24,000 nt of DNA from an uncultured Gammaproteobacteria bacterium (GCA_964564005.1 CAZLZK010000002.1:14313-38312), one strand, 5' to 3'; shown: positions 11,370 through 19,621, counted from the stretch's first letter. Notes: generated from the sequence alone by a model not told the origin. Program-made: numbers and translations.

Positions 11370-12339
11370 CCTCTATCGGGTTTTCTCTATACCACTTAAT
11401 GGACCTCGTAATACCTTCCTCGAGTTCGACCTTGGGTCTATAGTCTAGCAATTTACCTGCCTTTTGAATACTCGGTACTCTAAGTTCAATATCTACTTCT
11501 ATATGGGGAATAAATTTCATTTTAGAGCGAGACTTTGCCAAAGCAATAATTACCTTAGCAAGATTATAAGTGGTTATGGTCCCAGACGGATTCCCAATAT
11601 TAAATATTTCCCCTACAGCTTCTTTTCTCTCTAAGATAGCCATCATCGCGTCAATAAAATCATCAATATAGCACCAGGCTCTAATTTGATTCCCGTCACC
11701 GGTTATTCGTATTTCTTGATTTTCGATTGCCCGTCTTGCAAAGATCTGGATTGCTCCTTCCCCTACCTGCCCAGGTCCATAAATATTGAACGGCCGGATC
11801 GAAGTTACCGGAATGCCATACTGGACAGCATAGGCAAAAGTAAGGCCTTCTCCAGCCAGTTTACTGATACCATATGTCCATCTTCTCTGTTTCAATTGAC
11901 CTTGGGCTGTCACCCCATCCTCCTTTGCCCCAAAAGCCATGGGCCCATACACTTCGCTGGTAGAAAAATAAACCAACCTCTCTAGTCTAAGGTCTTTTAT
12001 TGCCTCAAGAACGGAGTATGTCCCGACTGCATTAACTTCCATGGTTTTAACGGGCTGATGATAATAGTCGCTTACTCCCGCCATAGCTGCTAAATGAAGT
12101 ACTATATTAGGCTTGAAATCGCTGACCGTTTTTTTAAGAAAATTTCTGTCTAGAATATCGCCAACCACATTTCGGGTGTTTTTCTTATTTATATCTTTTT
12201 GGAAGTATTGAAATGCGTTCCTCCGCAAGTTATCAAAAGTCATTATCTTGTTACTTTTAGATAACGCCTTACAGAGGCTAGTGCCAATAAATCCCTGTCC
12301 GCCGGTTATAAAAATCCTTTTACCCTTAATCATAAGCAT
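11356..12339 (-). CDS. Extended SDR producing an NDP-4-keto sugar; best fit is a UXS/ArnA-C-terminal-like UDP-uronate decarboxylase, alternatively a 4,6-dehydratase
   Basis: Motifs KRIFITGGQGFIGTSL, FSTSEVYGP (TSE triad as in UXS, ArnA and GMD, unlike SSATVYG of GalE), YGISKLAGE (YxxxK) and RPFNIYGPG. Start placed at the ATG at 12339 (MLMIKGKR), or 12333. The track TTG start at 12390 lies inside the 21-bp tandem repeat and would add a non-homologous leader. Confidence 0.75.
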   Translation of the reverse strand: MLMIKGKRIFITGGQGFIGTSLCKALSKSNKIMTFDNLRRNAFQYFQKDINKKNTRNVVGDILDRNFLKKTVSDFKPNIVLHLAAMAGVSDYYHQPVKTMEVNAVGTYSVLEAIKDLRLERLVYFSTSEVYGPMAFGAKEDGVTAQGQLKQRRWTYGISKLAGEGLTFAYAVQYGIPVTSIRPFNIYGPGQVGEGAIQIFARRAIENQEIRITGDGNQIRAWCYIDDFIDAMMAILERKEAVGEIFNIGNPSGTITTYNLAKVIIALAKSRSKMKFIPHIEVDIELRVPSIQKAGKLLDYRPKVELEEGITRSIKWYRENPIEDEKS

Positions 12340-12360
12340 AGCTTGTTCTCGCAGACTCGA

Positions 12361-12402
12361 ATTAAGCAAAGCTTGTCTTCGATTAAGCAAAGCTTGTCTT
12401 CG
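12361..12402 (-). repeat. Two perfect tandem copies of a 21-bp unit (gene-sense CGAAGACAAGCTTTGCTTAAT); a degenerate third copy lies at 12331-12351
   Basis: Direct reading: 12361-12381 equals 12382-12402 (plus strand ATTAAGCAAAGCTTGTCTTCG). 12331-12351 (CATAAGCATAGCTTGTTCTCG) matches 16/21 and covers both candidate start codons of the SDR gene. The repeat sits in the 93-nt gap between the aminotransferase stop (12433) and the SDR start. Confidence 0.9.
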
Positions 12403-12432
12403 AATGAAAAGCCATCAGATTCTAACAATTTT

Positions 12433-13551
12433 CTAGACCTTCTTCAAATTTTTCTTCAACGAAGATGCTACTTCCTGAATATCACTATTGGTGATCTCGG
12501 GAAAAATAGGAAGAGATAATGTGTGTCTCGCTAGTTCCTCCGCATGGGGAAAGTCTCCTTCCTTGTGTCCCAAAGATTTAAAAACAGGTTGAAGATGAAG
12601 AGGAATGGGATAGTGGATTCCAACCTCAATCCCCTTTTTCCTCATCTCGTCATACACACTATCTCTGTCCTCAACTTGTATGGCGTAAAGGTGATAGACG
12701 GATTTTACGCCCTCTGGCTCGAAAGGCGTGACAACGGGTAAATCTTTAAGTAGATTGTTATAGAGTTGGGCAACTTCACGCCTTCTCTCATTCCACTTTT
12801 TGAGGTATTTTAATTTTACTAAAAGGACTGCCGCTTGAAGCGTATCCATTCTTGATGAATAGCCTAAAATATCATGTGTATATTTCTCTTTCCTTCCATG
12901 GTTTCTCAATAATCTGAGTGTCTGCGTAATGCTTTCATTATTAGTAATAACTGCGCCAGCATCTCCATAAGCTCCTAAGTTCTTACCGGGATAAAAGGAG
13001 AAAACGGCCGCGTCCCCAATAGTGCCTACACACCTTCCTTTATACAAAGCACCGTGAGCTTGTGCAGCATCTTCTAGGATAAAGAGTTTATGCTTTTTTG
13101 CGATTTCGATTATAGGGTCCATATCGGCCGGTTGCCCATAAATGTGGACAGGAATTATCCCCTTAGTCTTTTTTGTTATCTTATTTTCAATCTTTTCCGG
13201 ATCTATGTTATATGTTTTAGGATCTATATCTACAAACACAGGGGTGGCCCCGCACATGGAAATTGCTGAAGCTGTTGCTACAAAGCTATGGGGAGTCGTA
13301 ACAACTTCATCTCCAGAATTTACTCCCAAAGCTAGTAACGACAAAAATAAAGCATCTGTTCCAGATGCTACCCCTATTGTATACTTCGCGCCTATAAATC
13401 GAGAAAAGGCCTCCTCAAAAATTTTTACCTCTTCTCCCATAATGAAATTGGTGTTTTTGATAACACCGTTTATCGTCTCATCAATATCTTTTTTAATGCT
13501 TTTGTACTGAAGCTTGAGATTTACCAGGGGAATTTTATATTTGGGTCTCAT
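12433..13551 (-). CDS. DegT-family sugar 3-aminotransferase, WbpE/WlbC-like
   Basis: 372 aa. Motifs NLKLQYKSIKKDID..., GAKYTIGVASGTDAL, PVFVDIDPKTYNIDP, FSFYPGKNLGAYGDAGA (lysine present) and HGRKEKYTHDILGYSSRMDTLQAAVL. The pattern matches my recollection of P. aeruginosa WbpE and QdtB/DesV-type C3 aminotransferases. Confidence 0.8.
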   Translation of the reverse strand: MRPKYKIPLVNLKLQYKSIKKDIDETINGVIKNTNFIMGEEVKIFEEAFSRFIGAKYTIGVASGTDALFLSLLALGVNSGDEVVTTPHSFVATASAISMCGATPVFVDIDPKTYNIDPEKIENKITKKTKGIIPVHIYGQPADMDPIIEIAKKHKLFILEDAAQAHGALYKGRCVGTIGDAAVFSFYPGKNLGAYGDAGAVITNNESITQTLRLLRNHGRKEKYTHDILGYSSRMDTLQAAVLLVKLKYLKKWNERRREVAQLYNNLLKDLPVVTPFEPEGVKSVYHLYAIQVEDRDSVYDEMRKKGIEVGIHYPIPLHLQPVFKSLGHKEGDFPHAEELARHTLSLPIFPEITNSDIQEVASSLKKNLKKV

Positions 13552-13578
13552 GAAAAGAACTCTGTTTACAAAAAAGGG

Positions 13579-14175
13579 CTATGGATATATTTTCTCCCCG
13601 CTATCATATTTTAAATCGGGTAAGCGCGCGACAACCTTTGCTGGGTTGCCCACCACAACTGAATTCTCAGGAACATCTTTAGTTACCACGCTACCCGCGC
13701 CTATTAGGGCATTTCTTCCAATAATTACCCCAGGCAAGAGAACTGCTCCTGCCCCAATTTTAGCTCTACTTTTAACAGTAACTCCACTTAAACCTTCTTT
13801 TGCTCTTGGAGACGCAGGATACTTAGCGTTGGTAAAAGTCACTGTAGGACCAACCCAAACATCATCCTCCAAAACTGTATACTCTGGTATAAAGACATTT
13901 GAATGGATTCTAACATTATTGCCAATCGTTACGTGGTGCTCTATATCCGTGTGGGAACCAACGCTAACATTGTCACCTATGACATTTAATTCTCTAATTA
14001 AAACTCCGTGTCCTGTCTGAAAATTATTTCCTATAATATTGCCTGCATAAATAACCGTGTGGGAGCGAATGTTGGCTTTATTCCCAATTACAGTAGGCTT
14101 CGTTTTTTGTTTTGGTTGGCATCCAATAATCACAAACTTATCAATCCGGGGGTCTTTGCCTGCTTTAAAGTTCAT
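13579..14175 (-). CDS. Left-handed beta-helix N-acetyltransferase, WbpD/WlbB-like
   Basis: 198 aa of hexapeptide repeats. The segment GPTVTFTNAKYPASPRAKEG...IGAGAVLLPGVIIGRNALIGAGSVVTKDVPENSVVVGNPAK parallels the WbpD segment GPSMVFTNVYNPRS...VGAGAVINKDVP..MVGVPAR. Confidence 0.75.
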   Translation of the reverse strand: MNFKAGKDPRIDKFVIIGCQPKQKTKPTVIGNKANIRSHTVIYAGNIIGNNFQTGHGVLIRELNVIGDNVSVGSHTDIEHHVTIGNNVRIHSNVFIPEYTVLEDDVWVGPTVTFTNAKYPASPRAKEGLSGVTVKSRAKIGAGAVLLPGVIIGRNALIGAGSVVTKDVPENSVVVGNPAKVVARLPDLKYDSGEKIYP

Positions 14176-14185
14176 ATTTTTTAAT

Positions 14186-15199
14186 TTATAAATTGACCTT
14201 TTTACCGATTTCTGCAGATTTATAAAGAGCTTCTACAATCTGCAAAGACCTTATTCCTTCTAATCCTGAGGTCGCGGGGTCCCGATCTTGTTCTATTGCC
14301 GAGATCATCTCTTCAATTACTTGGGTATGAGAATTTCCGTAGACAGAAGCAGGGTCAGAATCTGCAAGAGTTAATATTTCATGTTCCCTATCCTCTTCAC
14401 CTTTCACCTTCCAAATAACGAGTCTGTTCAGAGCCGTTCCTCCGATCTTAACAGACCCAGTCTCGCCAAACAGCGAGACTGATCCTTCTAAGTTTTGAGG
14501 CCAACAGATAGTCGACGCCTCAAGAGAAGCAAGTGCACCTCCTGGAAATTCCAAAAAAGCTAACGCCGTATCTTCCGTCTCCATTTCGTGGGCAAGAGTG
14601 GCTTTTTTGCAAAACACTGCTCTGGGCATTCCCATCAACCACTGTAATGCATCGATGTGATGAATTGCTTGATTCATTAATACTCCCCCATCCATATCTT
14701 TCGTACCATGCCACCCATCGTTATAATATTCTTGAGGTCTATACCATCTAACTGTGATGTTGCCTAGATAAATTTTTCCCAACCCTTTTTGCAGAACCAG
14801 CTTTTTTACATCTTGCATCGGACTGTTGTATCTATTTTGCAGAACTACACAAAGTTTCCTCTTATATCTGTCTGCCGTTTTAATAACTTCTTCCGCATCT
14901 TTCACTGTCAAAGCCATCGGTTTTTCGACTAACACGTGTTTACCTTTTCGCAAAGCTTTTATAGCCATCTGGGCATGTAAACCAGAAGGTGTACAGATAT
15001 TTATAACGTCGACGTCGCGCCTTGAAAGCACTTCTTCAAAACTGAAAACAGGGTGGGAGTGGTATTGTTTTGCAAGAGTGTTTGCCTTTTCTCCAACAAC
15101 GTCGCAAACGGCCGTTAGCTTGGCGTTACTGCAACCTACGATGGACTGTGCATGCCTTGGGGCAATTCTACCGCAACCAACAATCGCAAATTTAATCAT
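14186..15199 (-). CDS. Gfo/Idh/MocA-family NAD-dependent sugar-nucleotide dehydrogenase, WbpB/WlbA-like
   Basis: 337 aa. Motifs MIKFAIVGCGRIAPRH (Rossmann), EKPMALT and NRYNSP. The C-terminal alpha/beta domain fits. It sits directly upstream of the WbpD-like and WbpE-like genes, with gaps of 10 and 27 nt, in the classical wbpB-wbpD-wbpE order. Confidence 0.75.
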   Translation of the reverse strand: MIKFAIVGCGRIAPRHAQSIVGCSNAKLTAVCDVVGEKANTLAKQYHSHPVFSFEEVLSRRDVDVINICTPSGLHAQMAIKALRKGKHVLVEKPMALTVKDAEEVIKTADRYKRKLCVVLQNRYNSPMQDVKKLVLQKGLGKIYLGNITVRWYRPQEYYNDGWHGTKDMDGGVLMNQAIHHIDALQWLMGMPRAVFCKKATLAHEMETEDTALAFLEFPGGALASLEASTICWPQNLEGSVSLFGETGSVKIGGTALNRLVIWKVKGEEDREHEILTLADSDPASVYGNSHTQVIEEMISAIEQDRDPATSGLEGIRSLQIVEALYKSAEIGKKVNL

Positions 15200-15225
15200 A
15201 GATAGATGAATAAATTAGTACCTAC

Positions 15226-15234
15226 TTTATATCA
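15226..15234 (-). promoter_or_regulatory. Candidate extended -10 promoter element (TGATATAAA) for the wbpB-like operon
   Basis: The minus strand reads TGATATAAA: TGn followed by TATAAA, which is 5/6 to TATAAT. It lies 27-35 nt upstream of the ATG at 15199. There is no good -35 at 17 nt. Confidence 0.3.
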
Positions 15235-15277
15235 CACCTAGCCGATATCTGATAGTCTTATAAGCAAGTCAAGAATA

Positions 15278-15391
15278 CTGTGGTCTTCAAACCGCAGATG
15301 AATTGACTCACGAGTCCGCCGACTAGCGGACGAGTAATTCACAAGCAAATCTTGCTTGTGAAGCTTAGAAGATACCCCGCCAATGGCGGGG
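15278..15391. other. Cluster of four stem-loops in a locally GC-rich intergenic segment (possible structured RNA, terminators or operator)
   Basis: Read directly. A: 15278-15297, CTGTGGT/ACCGCAG, 7 bp with one G-U on the plus-strand RNA and a C-A mismatch on the minus strand. B: 15314-15331, GTCCGC-cgacta-GCGGAC, 6 bp. C: 15338-15362, TTCACAAGCAA-atc-TTGCTTGTGAA, a perfect 11 bp. D: 15375-15391, CCCCGCC-aat-GGCGGGG, 7 bp. Confidence 0.6.
15375..15391 (-). terminator. Candidate intrinsic terminator after the GT-C/CBM gene
   Basis: On the minus strand the 7-bp all-GC-rich hairpin CCCCGCC-ATT-GGCGGGG starts 4 nt after the TGA at 15396-15398. It is followed by TATCTTCT, which is a U-rich but interrupted tract. 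Confidence 0.4.
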
Positions 15392-15395
15392 AGCT

Positions 15396-17774
15396 TCATA
15401 GTATACCTCTGTTATTAGGCAAGAACAAGTCATCGTCCAAAATGGTAGTTGGTTGTAAATCAGAAGCTGGCTGGCGTATTCTCGTTTCCATTACTTCTAC
15501 GCTATCCAGATAAAAACCCACCTGAGGATTGTCTCCCTGAAAACCTATCGCTCCCAACCGTGTGCCTTCCGGTGCAGTGCCATAAACTTCAACCTTATGC
15601 CACTCACTTTTACCATATATTCTCTCTGATACAAAACTGACAATGGGCCTCGCGGTAATGCTAGCCGGTACTTCTTCTGAATAAAAGTCCAGCCTTAAAA
15701 ATCCGTCTCTTGATTCCTTGGCTAACTCACTGACATTTTTGATCCAACCCACCAACTTATATCCATAACCTGACTTTACTTCAAAATAAGGAGATTGCCA
15801 CCTCACCGATCCCGGGAAAGAACCACGACTTTTAATTACTAGCGCCTCATTGCCATCTCTCCCATCCTTGTCTACCTTTAGGTCCTCTTTATCCTTAGGT
15901 AAATAATAGAGGGGGGTCCATTTATTATCTTCGAAAGTATATTTAGCAATTGATAAGAATTCCTGGTTTTTGTCTTTTTCTAGTCTAAATACCACATAAT
16001 TATCTCCAGCCGCCTGCCAACGAGTAAGGAAGGCTTTGAGTGTATGTGACCATAAAGTTTCCCTTAACGCCAGGGCTATGTAGTTTTGTGAAAGGAGGTC
16101 ATTCGGTTTATTCCAAAATTTAATGCCAATTTCTGGCGACTGCCTCATCCACCACATAAACGCTCCCTGGATATCATTCATGTCTAAAATCGCATAGTCA
16201 TAACCTTCTTGTTTTAGTTCTTTATATGAAAATACCTTGCTAAGATATGATAAGGATTTTACCTGAACTTGCTTGTCTTTACTTGAGGGGTTATGTTCAT
16301 ATGTGGCAAGAGTCACGTCTCCCTTAATATTTTTTTCTGTCCACTCTCTTGCCTCAATAAAAGTTGATTTTTGAGAGTATCCCTGAATCATTATTTTATC
16401 GTTGATAACGTGGTCCTTAAGTCCAAAAAACAAAGCTCCTACAAAAAAAATGGCCCCAACCATCTTAATAAACAGCCCCTTTCTTTTGAAAAGTAAGTTA
16501 AATATATATTCAATACATAGAGCCGAGAAAATAAGAAGCATGGGGATTAAGACTATGGTATTCCTTGTGAAGAAACCCCCTCCTGTATAATACATATATA
16601 AGTAAATGTTTATTGGAAATATTGAGAGCAATAAAAGTGTGGTAAGCCTTAAATCTTTTTTTAAAAACCCTATTAAAATACCAAATATCGCAAACCAAGT
16701 GAGTTGCGCACCTACCCCAAAATGATACATGTAAGAAGCAGGGAAAATGCTGATCGTGTTTAACCCAAAAGCATATTTTGCAGCTTCATATCTATGTAAC
16801 TCCAAAACCCTTTCCCAGTGCTGGAAATAGTGTATGTGAGAAATCAAGACTATTCCTAAAGACACGAGCCCTCCAATGATCACTTTCGGGCTCAAGAATT
16901 CTGCCCAAAATTTTTTAAGGTTCTTCTTTGAGTACTTCCAGCTGATCACTAGGTGAGCAAGGAAAAAAGGGAAAAATGCATAGATTTGATATTTTGTCAA
17001 GAAGGATAGGCTTACTAAAACCCCGCAAATTAAATATCTTTTCAAGGTTGGCTCCTTTAATAACGCGCCAACTGCCAAAAGAACAGCTAAAAGGAAAAAG
17101 ACATTGTACATGTCTATAAAGCCAATATGGCTACTCAGAATAAGCCTGTAATTAACTGCTACCAAAAATGCTGCAAGAAGCGCAGTGCTCTTTTTCCCCA
17201 AGAGGGTATGGGCGACTTGATATGTAAGGTAAATTGCTCCGCTACCAAAGATAGCTGTCAGATAACGTCCCCAATATAAAGCGTTGGCCCAATTTCTGCC
17301 AAAGACCTCTTTGTGAAAAAGATTTGTTTGAGAAATTGCTATGGTTCCCGAGATAATAAGAACAACCCAGAGGAACAGAAGAGAAACAACTAAAGTTTTC
17401 CTGTTGTCCCAATGTATTAACTTGCGAAGTAAGAACACAACACCCAAAAGTCCGGCAAAAGCAGGCAAAAGGAACATCCAAATATCATTGAAATGGCGGA
17501 CTAGTGTTAAAAACCATGCCGCCGGAATAAACACACCGGCAAATGCAACCAGCATAATCCACCCAACCAATGGAGGGTAACCTAGCCATTGTAGTTGCAT
17601 ACTCAATGTTTTGTGGGTAATCATATATACAGCCTGGGCATACATTAGTTCATCGCCATGAGAGTAATAGCCGGGGTAGACGATAACAAAGCGAAGAATC
17701 AGCCCGAGTAAAAGAATTGTGGGCAGGGTGAACTTATGTCTTACCCACTTTGGCACGAATGATAAAAACACCAT
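15396..17774 (-). CDS. GT-C fold membrane glycosyltransferase with a C-terminal jelly-roll (CBM4_9 / galactose-binding-like) domain
   Basis: The N-terminal part has many TM helices and the acidic first-loop motif YYSHGDELMYAQ. The C-terminal roughly 130 aa (GNEALVIKSRG..VRWQSPYFEVKSGYGYKLVGWIKN...SEWHKVEVYGTAPEGT..GFYLDSVEV) fits a carbohydrate-binding beta-sandwich pattern. Start placed at the ATG at 17774, with AAGGGGGA 10 nt upstream. The track start at 17813 would give an 80-nt overlap with the upstream gene, and even 17774 gives 41 nt. Confidence 0.7.
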   Translation of the reverse strand: MVFLSFVPKWVRHKFTLPTILLLGLILRFVIVYPGYYSHGDELMYAQAVYMITHKTLSMQLQWLGYPPLVGWIMLVAFAGVFIPAAWFLTLVRHFNDIWMFLLPAFAGLLGVVFLLRKLIHWDNRKTLVVSLLFLWVVLIISGTIAISQTNLFHKEVFGRNWANALYWGRYLTAIFGSGAIYLTYQVAHTLLGKKSTALLAAFLVAVNYRLILSSHIGFIDMYNVFFLLAVLLAVGALLKEPTLKRYLICGVLVSLSFLTKYQIYAFFPFFLAHLVISWKYSKKNLKKFWAEFLSPKVIIGGLVSLGIVLISHIHYFQHWERVLELHRYEAAKYAFGLNTISIFPASYMYHFGVGAQLTWFAIFGILIGFLKKDLRLTTLLLLSIFPINIYLYMYYTGGGFFTRNTIVLIPMLLIFSALCIEYIFNLLFKRKGLFIKMVGAIFFVGALFFGLKDHVINDKIMIQGYSQKSTFIEAREWTEKNIKGDVTLATYEHNPSSKDKQVQVKSLSYLSKVFSYKELKQEGYDYAILDMNDIQGAFMWWMRQSPEIGIKFWNKPNDLLSQNYIALALRETLWSHTLKAFLTRWQAAGDNYVVFRLEKDKNQEFLSIAKYTFEDNKWTPLYYLPKDKEDLKVDKDGRDGNEALVIKSRGSFPGSVRWQSPYFEVKSGYGYKLVGWIKNVSELAKESRDGFLRLDFYSEEVPASITARPIVSFVSERIYGKSEWHKVEVYGTAPEGTRLGAIGFQGDNPQVGFYLDSVEVMETRIRQPASDLQPTTILDDDLFLPNNRGIL

Positions 17775-18330
17775 AATCAAAAGTTCCCCCTTTCTTCCTA
17801 AATTGCCTTTCAATTTCTAAGCCGCCACTTATCAGTGATCTATAACTTTCTACATCTCTCACATAATGCCCTTTATCCAAACTTCTCAAAATGTGGCTAA
17901 GAATATTCCACTTATAAATTGGAGGTATAGCTTCTATCATAATAATTTTTCCATTTGACATAAGCAACGATTTCATGACTCCTAAACTAGCTTGCAGTTC
18001 TCTATCGTTCAGGTGGTGTAACACCCCCACAACCACAATCAAGTCAAATCCTTTGTGCAACCTTAACTTTGTCACGTCACCAACCCGAAATGTGTACTCT
18101 TGATATTTTCTCTTGGCATAAGTGATGGCCCTTGGATCAATATCGATACCAAGATATTGTTTTGGAGAAAAGAGTGGCGCTAAGATTCCAATCCCACAAC
18201 CAAAATCTAAGACATTATTGTACTTCTGCCCTTTCAAGACATCACTGATAATCTTTCTAATAACAAAATAATTAAAACTTAGAACCCTAATAAAAAGATA
18301 GGACAAAAAATATTGTAATCTGTCAAGCAT
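17734..18330 (-). CDS. Class I SAM-dependent methyltransferase (Methyltransf_11/25-like), substrate unknown
   Basis: 198 aa. Motif I is VLDFGCGIGILA, post-I is GIDID, and motif II/III is FDLIVVVGVLHHL. Confidence 0.75.
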   Translation of the reverse strand: MLDRLQYFLSYLFIRVLSFNYFVIRKIISDVLKGQKYNNVLDFGCGIGILAPLFSPKQYLGIDIDPRAITYAKRKYQEYTFRVGDVTKLRLHKGFDLIVVVGVLHHLNDRELQASLGVMKSLLMSNGKIIMIEAIPPIYKWNILSHILRSLDKGHYVRDVESYRSLISGGLEIERQFRKKGGTFDYGVFIIRAKVGKT

Positions 18331-18338
18331 TGTTTATT

Positions 18339-18361
18339 CGAAGACAAGCTTCGCTTATTCG
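18339..18361 (+). promoter_or_regulatory. Third full copy of the 21-bp unit (CGAAGACAAGCTTCGCTTATTCG) in the divergent promoter region
   Basis: 21/23 identical to the gene-sense reading of the 12361-12402 repeat (CGAAGACAAGCTTTGCTTAATCG). Flank similarity extends on both sides (TGTTTATT vs TTTTCATT upstream; TTCGA downstream). It lies 32 nt upstream of the candidate -35 for the cupin gene and 8 nt from the ATG of the divergent methyltransferase. Confidence 0.6.
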
Positions 18362-18392
18362 ATTGTAATCTACAACGATTGCTTTCACAATC

Positions 18393-18421
18393 TTTACTAC
18401 AAAATGAAAATCTGTTATATT
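18393..18421 (+). promoter_or_regulatory. Sigma70-like promoter candidate for the cupin gene: TTTACT-N17-TATATT
   Basis: TTTACT at 18393-18398, an exact 17-nt spacer, then TATATT at 18416-18421. The -10 ends 35 nt upstream of the ATG at 18457. Confidence 0.45.
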
Positions 18422-18456
18422 GCGCATTGAAGGCTATTTGGATAAACAAAACAGAG

Positions 18457-18843
18457 ATGGAAAAAATATTCTACAAAAATACATTGATAGGAATCCGCCT
18501 TTCGGTATTTCCAAAAGGCTCTATCGCCCACACAGATGCCAAGGAAGCACTGGGGCTTTTAACCCTTGTGCACCCTAAAGGCACCTCTCTTCGGGCACAC
18601 GTGCACACCCCACAAAAAAGAATCACCAAGACCCTACAGGAATGTTTTATCGTAATTCGGGGAAAGGTCAGAATAGACCTTTATGGACCAGATAAGAAGT
18701 TCTTTAAATACATTATTCTTCAGACGGGTCAAGCTTTTCTGGCACTTGCCGGCGGCCACGGCTTCCACTTTCTTAAAGATTCCGCGCTTATAGAGCTTAA
18801 AAATGGTCCTTTCAAAGAAGACAAGGTGTTTATTAATAACTAA
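18457..18843 (+). CDS. Small cupin-fold protein (possible nucleotide-sugar isomerase/epimerase or WbuC-like); function uncertain
   Basis: Cupin motif 1, G-X5-H-X-H, is present as GTSLRAHVH. This is followed by ECFIVIRGKV and a second His-containing strand, GGHGFHF. Start chosen at the ATG at 18457; the track start at 18379 is a TTG upstream of the candidate promoter. About 128 aa. Confidence 0.5.
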   Translation: MEKIFYKNTLIGIRLSVFPKGSIAHTDAKEALGLLTLVHPKGTSLRAHVHTPQKRITKTLQECFIVIRGKVRIDLYGPDKKFFKYIILQTGQAFLALAGGHGFHFLKDSALIELKNGPFKEDKVFINN

Positions 18844-18904
18844 AAACAGGGAGATTAAGAAGTGTCATTCGCAACCCTTATTTAGACCAGCCTCACTTAT
18901 TCCC

Positions 18905-18934
18905 AGAGGGTAGCCTTTACCCATCCCTCTTTTT
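18905..18934 (+). terminator. Weak candidate intrinsic terminator for the cupin gene
   Basis: AGAGGG (18905-18910) pairs with CCCTCT (18925-18930) and is followed directly by TTTT (18931-18934). An alternative inner stem is GGGTA/TACCC (18908-18912 / 18918-18922). The loop of the outer stem is long (14 nt). The element overlaps the 3' end of the convergent DUF218 gene. Confidence 0.25.
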
Positions 18935-19621
18935 AAGATACTCAAAAAGTTCGTCGAATGTGGCGAGGGCACCTTCCTTTTGATATGTGAAAATTCTTTT
19001 TATTTCGTCTTCTATATGTTCAATCCTTGGTTTAAGCTCGTTCCCTTGGGAACCCATTACTCTTTTATTCCAATCAGTTAGCTGAGGAAACATGCACCAA
19101 ACATTGATTGACAAACCTCTTTCGTTTATAACCCTTACTGTACCAAGCATGGCTCTAACTACCTGATGGGGCTGGGTCAATAATACTGCGCTCTTAAACC
19201 CTCTTTGTCTTGCCGTTTCTAAAAAGGCGTCACTCTCTGTTCGAGTATGAAATCCTTTCTCACCCTCAAGATGAGAGCTATAAATTATTTGCTCTTGTTT
19301 AACTCCTAGTCTAACTAGTCTGTCTGTCCACAAGGACTTCCCGGGATATGCCATTCGAGGGGTTGTTTCACCAACTCTCTCTCCCTCAGAATCGGCTAGA
19401 ACAATGTACCTGGCCCTTTCTTCTCTAATCATATCGGCAGCTACTTTAAATATATCTTGCTTCCCAGCATCAAAATAAGAGCGGGCATGGAAAAAGATTG
19501 CATCAACTGATATTGGAGGAAAATCACTCAGGAGCACAACCGTCGCTCGAGTTAAATCAATTAATTTCTTTCTTTCTACTTCCTGGCTCTCAGGGCCCGG
19601 CGCTTTCGGAACTTCTGCCAT
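18917..19621 (-). CDS. DUF218 (YdcF/ElyC/SanA-like) domain protein
   Basis: 234 aa. The pattern VDAIFFHARS...RYIVLADSEGE...LVRLGVKQEQIIYS...TRTESDAFLETARQRGFKSAVLLTQPHQVVRA parallels the DUF218 consensus (DAIVVLGG...I.SGG...L...GV....I..E..S.NT.ENA......KS..LVTS..H..RA). Confidence 0.6.
   Translation of the reverse strand: MAEVPKAPGPESQEVERKKLIDLTRATVVLLSDFPPISVDAIFFHARSYFDAGKQDIFKVAADMIREERARYIVLADSEGERVGETTPRMAYPGKSLWTDRLVRLGVKQEQIIYSSHLEGEKGFHTRTESDAFLETARQRGFKSAVLLTQPHQVVRAMLGTVRVINERGLSINVWCMFPQLTDWNKRVMGSQGNELKPRIEHIEDEIKRIFTYQKEGALATFDELFEYLKKRDG

Follow-up and report, generated by a model that had tools for sequence, protein, structure and literature searches.

The window, that is, the whole stretch of 24,000 nucleotides that was analysed (C2:14313-38312), belongs to an assembly of 783 kb in 71 contigs with a G+C content of 44% (G000). 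At its centre here are the gap between two divergent genes, one for a methyltransferase and one for a cupin-fold protein, and a related site near 12.3 kb, in front of an SDR gene (Table 1). The product of the cupin-fold gene (18457-18843) has 128 residues and matched no Pfam family and no PDB sequence. The top Foldseek matches of its model were 5buv, 4zu7, 4zu4, 5tpu and 3ryk, and the closest folds were those of WbcA, of the 3,4-ketoisomerases QdtA/FdtA/WlaRB and of RmlC. The suggestion of a preliminary description of this DNA, that the cupin could isomerise or epimerise keto-sugars, is a reasonable guess supported at the level of the predicted fold (AF2 pLDDT 83).

Table 1. Features of the methyltransferase-cupin gap and of the related 12.3-kb site, in window coordinates.
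Feature	Coordinates	Strand	Basis or remark
Two identical tandem A-type units, same family	12361..12402	-	33.1 bits each
30-nt B-type unit, TCGAGTCTG + CGAGAACAAGCTATGCTTATG	12331..12360	-	PWM 27.3 bits; hairpin TTCGAG-TCTG-CGAGAA
Class I SAM methyltransferase gene, divergent from cupin gene	17734..18330	-	Pfam Methyltransf_25/11/12/23, E about 1e-15
Left copy of the 10-bp direct repeat ATTGTAATCT, within the methyltransferase coding frame	18312..18321	+	
Degenerate upstream unit in the 21-nt register	18318..18338	+	PWM 2.2 bits, vs 34.1 for the full unit
Mini-hairpin T-C-GAA-G-A, GNA triloop closed by C-G and T-A	18338..18344	+	
Full 21-nt A-type repeat unit CGAAGACAAGCTTCGCTTATT	18339..18359	+	PWM score 34.1 bits
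Point where three other assemblies hold 42 extra bases (two more tandem units, CAAAGACAAACTTTGTTTATT + CAAAGACAAGCTTCGCTTATT)	18340..18341	.	Alignments
Invariant core CAAGCT-NN-GCTTA, here NN = TC	18345..18357	+	
Right copy of ATTGTAATCT; its minus strand gives the -10-like TACAAT of the methyltransferase-facing promoter-like site	18362..18371	+	
Sigma-70-like promoter candidate TTTACT-17-TATATT, cupin-fold gene	18393..18421	+	Consensus scan, 9/12 matches, TG before the -10; function not implied
Cupin-fold gene, sugar 3,4-ketoisomerase or epimerase-like	18457..18843	+	AF2 pLDDT 83.4; Foldseek

Two mismatches apart, the 23-nt sequence CGAAGACAAGCTTCGCTTATTCG (18339-18361) and the reverse complement of 12380-12402 are identical, and a repeat search extended the similarity between the two sites to 30 nt (90%) and to 34 nt (88%), in agreement with the 21 identities in 23 and the match of about 30 nt described previously. 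When up to three mismatches were allowed, a degenerate pattern of this sequence matched the window at 12359-81, 12380-402 and 18339-61 only (shuffle expectation 0.00). The other local features that had been described, namely TTATTCGA at 18334 and 18355 with a spacing of 21 nt, ATTGTAATCT on both sides of 40 nt, the ATG of the methyltransferase gene (18330-18328, minus strand) at 8 nt from the motif and the promoter candidate TTTACT-17-TATATT, were all present. The 21-nt period stands as far as the spacing of TTATTCGA is concerned, but the upstream copy in that register is very degenerate; it holds the ATG of the methyltransferase gene together with an in-frame TAA stop just upstream of this ATG in the codon listing. 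The -35-like hexamer of the cupin gene begins about 31 nt downstream of the motif, which places the array upstream of the candidate -35. A consensus scan also gave a minus-strand promoter-like sequence, TTGTGA-17-TACAAT (18390 to 18362), that faces the methyltransferase gene, and, provided that this candidate is used, the array at 18339 is probably located in the methyltransferase leader.

The preliminary description had preferred a cluster-specific regulon of the 4-keto-sugar SDR and the cupin gene, in which the motif would serve as operator or activator site. Seen locally, several features speak for such a site: the motif is upstream of both genes and in gene-sense orientation at both, its 21-nt period corresponds to two helical turns, its distance to the -35-like hexamer suits an activator, and the downstream gene does appear to encode a cupin of the sugar ketoisomerase or epimerase type. 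The distribution of the motif in the genome argues against it. An iterated position matrix detected about 96 units in the 783-kb assembly, distributed over 78 loci and with a density of one per 8 kb; block-shuffled contigs gave 0-3. The core CAAGCT-NN-GCTTA was found in 81 copies, against none for the reversed control. Tandem units are present at 16 loci, with spacings of 21, 23, 25 or 30 nt. According to a simple ORF map, in which 91% of the genome is coding, 19 loci are inside open frames that run for at least 50 codons on both sides, including acpS and rplE, and the loci at gene boundaries comprise 40 between co-directional genes (24 in the opposite and 16 in the same orientation), 12 between divergent genes and 7 between convergent genes. 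Many units occupy the entire gap from a stop codon to the next start codon, and several 30-nt units of the B type directly adjoin an ATG; at the 12.3-kb site the start codons of the SDR gene are provided by the 3' end of the B-type unit.

Comparison of individual copies showed that the 26-mer around 18339, including the TTATT flank, is identical at C44:2053 on another contig and has three differences from the 12.3-kb copies, and that a copy on C30 is also nearer to it than the 12.3-kb units. About 96 units at 78 loci, in both orientations and also in the interior of genes, are incompatible with a cluster-specific operator, and the loci include ribosomal protein genes and the ends of convergent genes. 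The gene-sense orientation seen at the SDR and cupin loci has no counterpart in the genome as a whole. Enrichment of the motif elsewhere, whose lack was to have spoken against a regulon, is present, but on a scale and at places that go beyond any local regulon. With a closest relative on C44, cupin orthologues that are devoid of the motif and a unit number that changes from one to three in otherwise identical sequence (see below), a regulon is extremely improbable; the shared motif says nothing on co-regulation of the SDR and cupin genes, and the regulatory story for the sugar cluster is removed. We consider it very probable that 18339-18361 belongs to a family of miniature structured repeats, restricted to this lineage, which has spread through the whole genome and of which the 12.3-kb copies are also members.

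The A unit of this family (21 nt) reads CG-N-AG-W-CAAGCT-NN-GCTTA-WW and usually follows TTAWW; of 48 A units, 35 have YTAWW upstream, and TTAWW forms the end of units. A unit of either type is composed of a TTAW flank, a small hairpin and the invariant CAAGCT-NN-GCTTA core, which itself ends in TTAW, and its ends are direct (TTAW ... TTAW) and not inverted. Covariation was evaluated on the 48 A units that have C-GNA-G at positions 1-5. Of these, 47 have complementary bases at -1 and +6 (T-A in 29 and A-T in 18), for a permutation mean of 25 and a maximum of 37, and this pair has the highest mutual information of all (0.84 bits). This covariation gives W-C-GNA-G-W' as the predicted mini-hairpin of the A unit. 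An alternative fold inside the unit, CGAAG/CTTCG, was rejected, as positions 3 and 13 show no covariation. The B units (30 nt) have the form TTYGAG-loop-CGARAA, with a stem that is longer than that of the A units, contains tandem G.A pairs and undergoes C-G to T-A exchanges; the stem of one B copy, TTTCAAG-TCTG-CTTGAAA, is wholly Watson-Crick.

The same architecture was found in the complete genome of a member of another family of the order (G039), which carries 47 single copies. In this genome, a stem of at least 4 bp and of differing sequence abuts ACAAGCT-NN-GCTTAT in 23 of 30 copies, compared with 28% in shuffles (P about 4e-8); the loops are GAA (8 copies), GCA, TAAT and TTTA, and GCGAAGC itself is present in some copies. 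The copies of this genome also show a strand bias of 33:14. DNA folding of units with ViennaRNA was not significantly better than that of shuffles (z of -0.6 to -1.8), so the hairpin claim rests on covariation and not on computed energy. The GNA triloop closed by C-G is known as an ultra-stable DNA mini-hairpin (PMC13037366, PMC3201870), and GNA mini-hairpins occur in primase-recognised single-strand initiation (ssi) signals (PMC13037366). The d(GCGAAGC) mini-hairpins of the phage G4 origin and of RSF1010 ssiA (PMC13037366) share this closed triloop with the A units; however, they are single functional sites at replication origins, whereas the units described here form a dispersed family known from sequence.

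The stable features, GNA loops and tandem G.A pairs, are present on one strand only, and this is often the non-transcribed one. This bears on the possibility that hairpin and core have their role in RNA, whether by terminating or stabilising transcripts or as a module for translation initiation. The many copies that fill a whole gap between stop and start codons, the B-type copies that directly adjoin an ATG and the probable position of the array at the cupin locus in the methyltransferase leader would all suit an element of this kind. It is nevertheless very unlikely, given that orientation with respect to transcription is mixed both in the genome of the window (24 opposite, 16 same) and in G039, of which two regions were sampled, that the units follow no U-tract rule, that no terminator-like site was scored, that Rfam 15 gave no match at an E of 1 or less in window 12000-19000, and that the structural features lie on one strand, often the one that is not transcribed. 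A terminator or a stable palindrome was likewise rejected as the nature of the unit, as the scan gave no terminator-like candidate and the units folded no better than shuffles.

The number of units at the cupin locus was found to vary. Three Logan contigs, from independent assemblies of three runs (SRR12113383, SRR12113384 and SRR12113430) that represent the same population, encode a cupin protein identical to that of the window and show 100% identity with the window over 2.3 kb, apart from 42 bases that bring the array from one unit to three; the three-unit array reads TTATT-CGAAGACAAGCTTCGCTTATT-CAAAGACAAACTTTGTTTATT-CAAAGACAAGCTTCGCTTATT-CG. Units 1 and 3 have 20 bases in common, and a deletion between these would leave exactly the single unit of the window. 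The three-unit form is not a simple recent duplication of the one-unit form, as its middle unit is divergent. Collapse of the array during assembly is an unlikely cause of the difference, since the shared stretch is only 20 nt. If the minus-strand candidate promoter is used, the methyltransferase leader would be 42 nt longer in the three-unit allele. Look-ups with the exact SDR protein found no other length of the 12.3-kb array; one contig reaches this array and ends inside it.

Comparison of proteins showed insertion of units in frame within genes, essential ones among them. In acpS, 14 residues encoded by the element are located in a loop and coincide with gaps in the alignment with the solved AcpS structures of the PDB; the comparison was made with these structures because the acpS orthologues of relatives were too divergent for alignment. 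In rplE, the codons GAC TAT are followed by ACGAACTTAAGCTCCGCTTAT and then by CAA, and the protein begins MALSTDY-TNLSSAY-QKKIVPKL, where the L5 of a relative (G015) reads MSLQTVY-EEQVRSKL. Solved L5 proteins of the PDB begin to align at residue 10. The rplE insert is N-terminal and measures exactly 21 nt (7 codons), with a junction overlap of TAT only, and it is the sole insertion for which the empty state is known.

Comparison with relatives showed that the positions of the units are not orthologous. Within 4.5 kb on either side of rplV there are five units in the genome of the window and two in each of two relatives (G015 and G034), those of G015 being in the C-terminal tail of L24 and in the other orientation; ten other relatives, with 9-47 core copies genome-wide, have none within the same distance of rplV. 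The cupin orthologues (61% identity in G003 and 51-68% at 9 metagenome loci) have no core match and are located directly behind other genes. No empty site for the cupin locus was recovered among the best cupin relatives (61-68% identity, other gene contexts), so that insertion at the 18339 locus itself is deduced from the family and not seen. The best methyltransferase orthologue is 43% identical.

The 10-bp repeat ATTGTAATCT (18312-21 and 18362-71) brackets the array in all four assemblies, that is, the window and the three Logan contigs, and encloses 40 nt in the former and 82 bp in the three-unit allele. A classical miniature transposon would account for this arrangement if a transposase had inserted the 40-bp segment (82 bp in the three-unit allele) with ATTGTAATCT as a 10-bp target-site duplication. 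Besides the exact repeat around the whole array in four assemblies, the rarity of such repeats is in its favour: exact flanking repeats of at least 9 nt were found at 3 of 77 testable loci and of at least 10 nt at 2 of 77, compared with 0.5% and 0.12% of random control positions and with 0.39% and 0.18% of control positions near gene boundaries (P about 0.003 and 0.008, respectively). The remaining 74 of 77 loci, however, have no flanking repeat of at least 9 nt, the rplE insertion shows the TAT overlap only, and terminal inverted repeats are absent from the units. At the other locus with a 10-nt repeat (C1:14937), an insert of 21 nt lies in frame between two copies of a 14-nt periodic repeat that the coding sequence already had, which accounts for its flanks; with an insert of 35 nt the frame would be lost. 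The ATTGTAATCT repeat of the window extends imperfectly to about 24 nt, a score equalled by 20 of 2000 shuffles, and this resembles local similarity more than a clean duplication. ATTGTAATCT occurs six times in the genome and is not a repeat family itself. These comparisons make a classical miniature transposon very improbable, and we treat the ATTGTAATCT repeat as what appears to be a local structure and not as a family-wide target-site duplication. The alternative offered in the preliminary description, a small duplicating element, was right in kind, but the family as a whole does not show the 10-bp target-site repeat that was proposed with it. The three loci with flanking repeats of at least 9 nt are not explained by the repeat-family model.

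The 13-nt core was found in 37 of 41 relatives, with 0-81 copies each and none for the reversed control, and 11 of its positions do not vary among three families of the order. Among 200 other genomes sampled across the phylum, a 15-mer matched 12. Nine of these had a single match, two had 2 copies (G061 and one of the three order members in the sample) and one (G161) had 5 copies with a tandem spacing of 27 nt. The core is widespread within the order but almost missing elsewhere in the phylum. A 20-mer typical of the genome gave no match in viral contigs and 7 single matches, at chance level, in unrelated genomes; a phage origin of the repeat was rejected on these results. The repeat was not found described in our literature searches.

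The strong conservation of the core across the order could equally reflect selection for a host function. Core and hairpin might be kept as a site for a nucleoid protein or global regulator, for single-strand priming or for DNA uptake, and be spread by ordinary mutation and recombination, not by a mobility of their own. Invariance of the 11 core positions across three families, compensatory changes in the variable stems, of the kind that selection for structure would produce, the known presence of GNA mini-hairpins in primase-recognised ssi signals (PMC13037366) and the occurrence of copies in both orientations, like uptake sequences, are consistent with such a site. Related genomes of similar size, however, have anywhere from 0 to 81 copies, which indicates that the site is dispensable, and the positions are not orthologous. 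The copies are exact 21-nt insertions and not substitutions, and tandem arrays are not expected of such signals. DUS and USS arise by substitution at about one copy per kb, far above the one per 8 kb found for these insertions. We regard a site kept for a host function as unlikely.

We thus return to the family of miniature structured repeats, for which the following mode of spread can be proposed. Units are probably added as exact blocks of 21 or 30 nt, singly or head to tail, and land chiefly in the few non-coding gaps, in either orientation, being tolerated within genes when in frame. The copy at the cupin locus is probably there because the divergent methyltransferase-cupin gap is permissive and not because of a shared regulator of sugar genes. 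The element may act at the DNA level, probably as single-stranded DNA, and a new unit may enter at, or re-create, a TTAW sequence, which would account for the head-to-tail arrays; these would then grow and shrink by slippage or unequal recombination. Our best guess is a process at the DNA level, probably on a single strand, that adds a unit beside TTAW and so re-creates its own target. Local effects of the units on expression, such as changes in the length of the methyltransferase leader or in promoter spacing and the donation of the methyltransferase ATG, would be side effects of where the units landed.

A Y1 transposase (RAYT/IS200-like) was considered as the mobiliser and rejected, as neither co-occurrence nor adjacency was found. 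The genome of the window has two ORFs with Y1_Tnp (PF01797), on C6 and C31, and no units are located beside either. Across 41 genomes the number of Y1_Tnp genes does not follow the copy number of the repeat, as shown by G003 (28 copies and no Y1_Tnp gene), G039 (47 and none) and G006 (1 and 8), and this examination of Y1_Tnp genes revealed no mobilising enzyme.

The closest parallels are with repeats of other lineages. The RPEs of Rickettsia are short non-coding repeats found across a reduced genome, between genes and also in frame inside functional, even essential, genes. The units resemble them as dispersed short repeats of a reduced genome that are present in frame in genes (19 embedded loci, among them acpS and rplE) and in different reading frames. 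The RPEs, however, measure about 100-150 bp with long palindromes, whereas the units measure 21-30 nt with a hairpin of 2-8 bp and a non-palindromic core; tandem head-to-tail arrays and variation of unit number are traits of the units that are not known from RPEs, and the lineage is different. MIRU units of mycobacteria measure about 46-101 bp, always have the same orientation relative to the operon and are not known to occur in frame within genes. To our knowledge, no hairpin-plus-core architecture has been described for them. The units share with MIRU-type VNTRs the tandem arrangement in intergenic gaps, the overlap with or supply of stop and start codons, and a varying unit number (here one versus three).

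REP and REPIN sequences are small mobile sequences mobilised by RAYT (Y1 HUH) transposases (reviewed in PMC3184786 and PMC2229807). Like these, the units are short hairpin-bearing repeats present in intergenic gaps in both orientations, in a genome with Y1_Tnp genes, and the structure of single-stranded DNA is probably what matters in both cases. Unlike these extragenic imperfect palindromes of 20-40 nt, the units lack a GTAG-type head, have weak computed stems and occupy 19 intragenic loci, and the Y1_Tnp genes of the genome are not flanked by units and do not track their number. Palindrome-associated elements derived from IS200/IS605 likewise have a hairpin beside short conserved ends, and may insert next to a 4-5-nt word without target duplication; the units have TTAW at both borders and YTAWW upstream in 35 of 48 A units, and rplE is the single insertion with a known empty state. 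The IS200/IS605-derived elements are, however, an order of magnitude larger, and the units have stems that vary between copies and no linked transposase. In contrast to MITEs, the units have no terminal inverted repeats and, at most copies, no target-site duplication of fixed length.

Ultra-small bacteria with genomes that are 91% coding are expected to purge repeats, yet this lineage carries up to about 80-96 copies, even in ribosomal protein genes. A copying mechanism that works on a minimal substrate probably exists. It is possible, although we hold it only tentatively, that the family is a structure-defined, single-strand-active insertion unit of 21 nt (GNA-triloop mini-hairpin plus 13-nt core) that enters at TTAW and would be smaller than any self-propagating DNA element known to date. 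Such a unit, confined to one order of ultra-small bacteria, would be copied by a trans-acting enzyme or a repair route, and its arrays, such as the one in the methyltransferase-cupin gap, would act in promoters and leaders as natural spacers of variable length. The covariation of the hairpin is a practical starting point in the search for the protein by which the element is recognised. Strains could be told apart with the units as VNTR-type markers. The units also break short-read assemblies, the contigs of which end within unit arrays.

Repeat units of the family (21-nt A-type or 30-nt B-type, with a mini-hairpin and a CAAGCT-NN-GCTTA core) were found within ribosomal protein genes of G000, the genome that holds the window, and of its relative G015 (see the table below). 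Contig ends or the starts of N runs coincided with repeat units in the stretch L084 (1722-1798) and in G000 (C15:9219 and C10:11122), and the family appears to fragment the short-read assemblies of these genomes.

In G039 (contig C1), a complete genome of another family, the 47 single copies showed a strand bias of 33:14 over the whole genome, and same-strand runs of copies were long, with 17 minus and 1 plus between 200 and 470 kb, for example. Comparison of copy strand with gene direction showed no correspondence in the two regions of G039 that were checked. The sporadic presence of core copies outside the order, in G161, suggests a possible transfer. No link was found between the repeat family and the Y1_Tnp ORFs, which number up to 8 in relatives and two in G000.

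Features of the window and of related genomes, with their coordinates
Feature	Location	Remarks
Imperfect inverted repeat GATTGTAA-N16-TCACAATC	window 18361-18392	7/8 matching
PMT_2-like ORF, 805 aa	window 15396-17813	longest TTG start used
Element-encoded 7-residue insert in ribosomal protein L5	G000 C8:15989-16009 (L035 2192-2203)	directly after N-terminus
Two repeat units in L24 C-terminal tail	G015, L026 4039-4077	
Five core copies, 3/5 tandem at 27-nt spacing	G161:C11:56713-56846	genome from different family of phylum
Two Y1_Tnp ORFs (IS200/RAYT-like), ~220-230 residues each	G000 C6:2-694, C31:6011-6664	HFHLL motif present

The cupin-fold protein (window 18457-18843) had no match in Pfam; its predicted structure has a fold similar to those of sugar 3,4-ketoisomerases and 3,5-epimerases. 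In relatives (L009, for example), its gene is located immediately downstream of a putative GDP-mannose 4,6-dehydratase gene, the C-terminus of whose product, judged by eye, looks like that of this enzyme.

The inverted repeat in the gap between the cupin-fold gene and the divergent methyltransferase gene could be the true control element of this locus. It overlaps both the right copy of the 10-mer (18362-18371) and a minus-strand promoter-like site, TTGTGA-17-TACAAT, directed towards the methyltransferase. The PMT_2-like ORF overlaps the 3' end of the methyltransferase gene by 80 nt (window 17734-17813) when read from its longest TTG start, and its actual start is probably located downstream.
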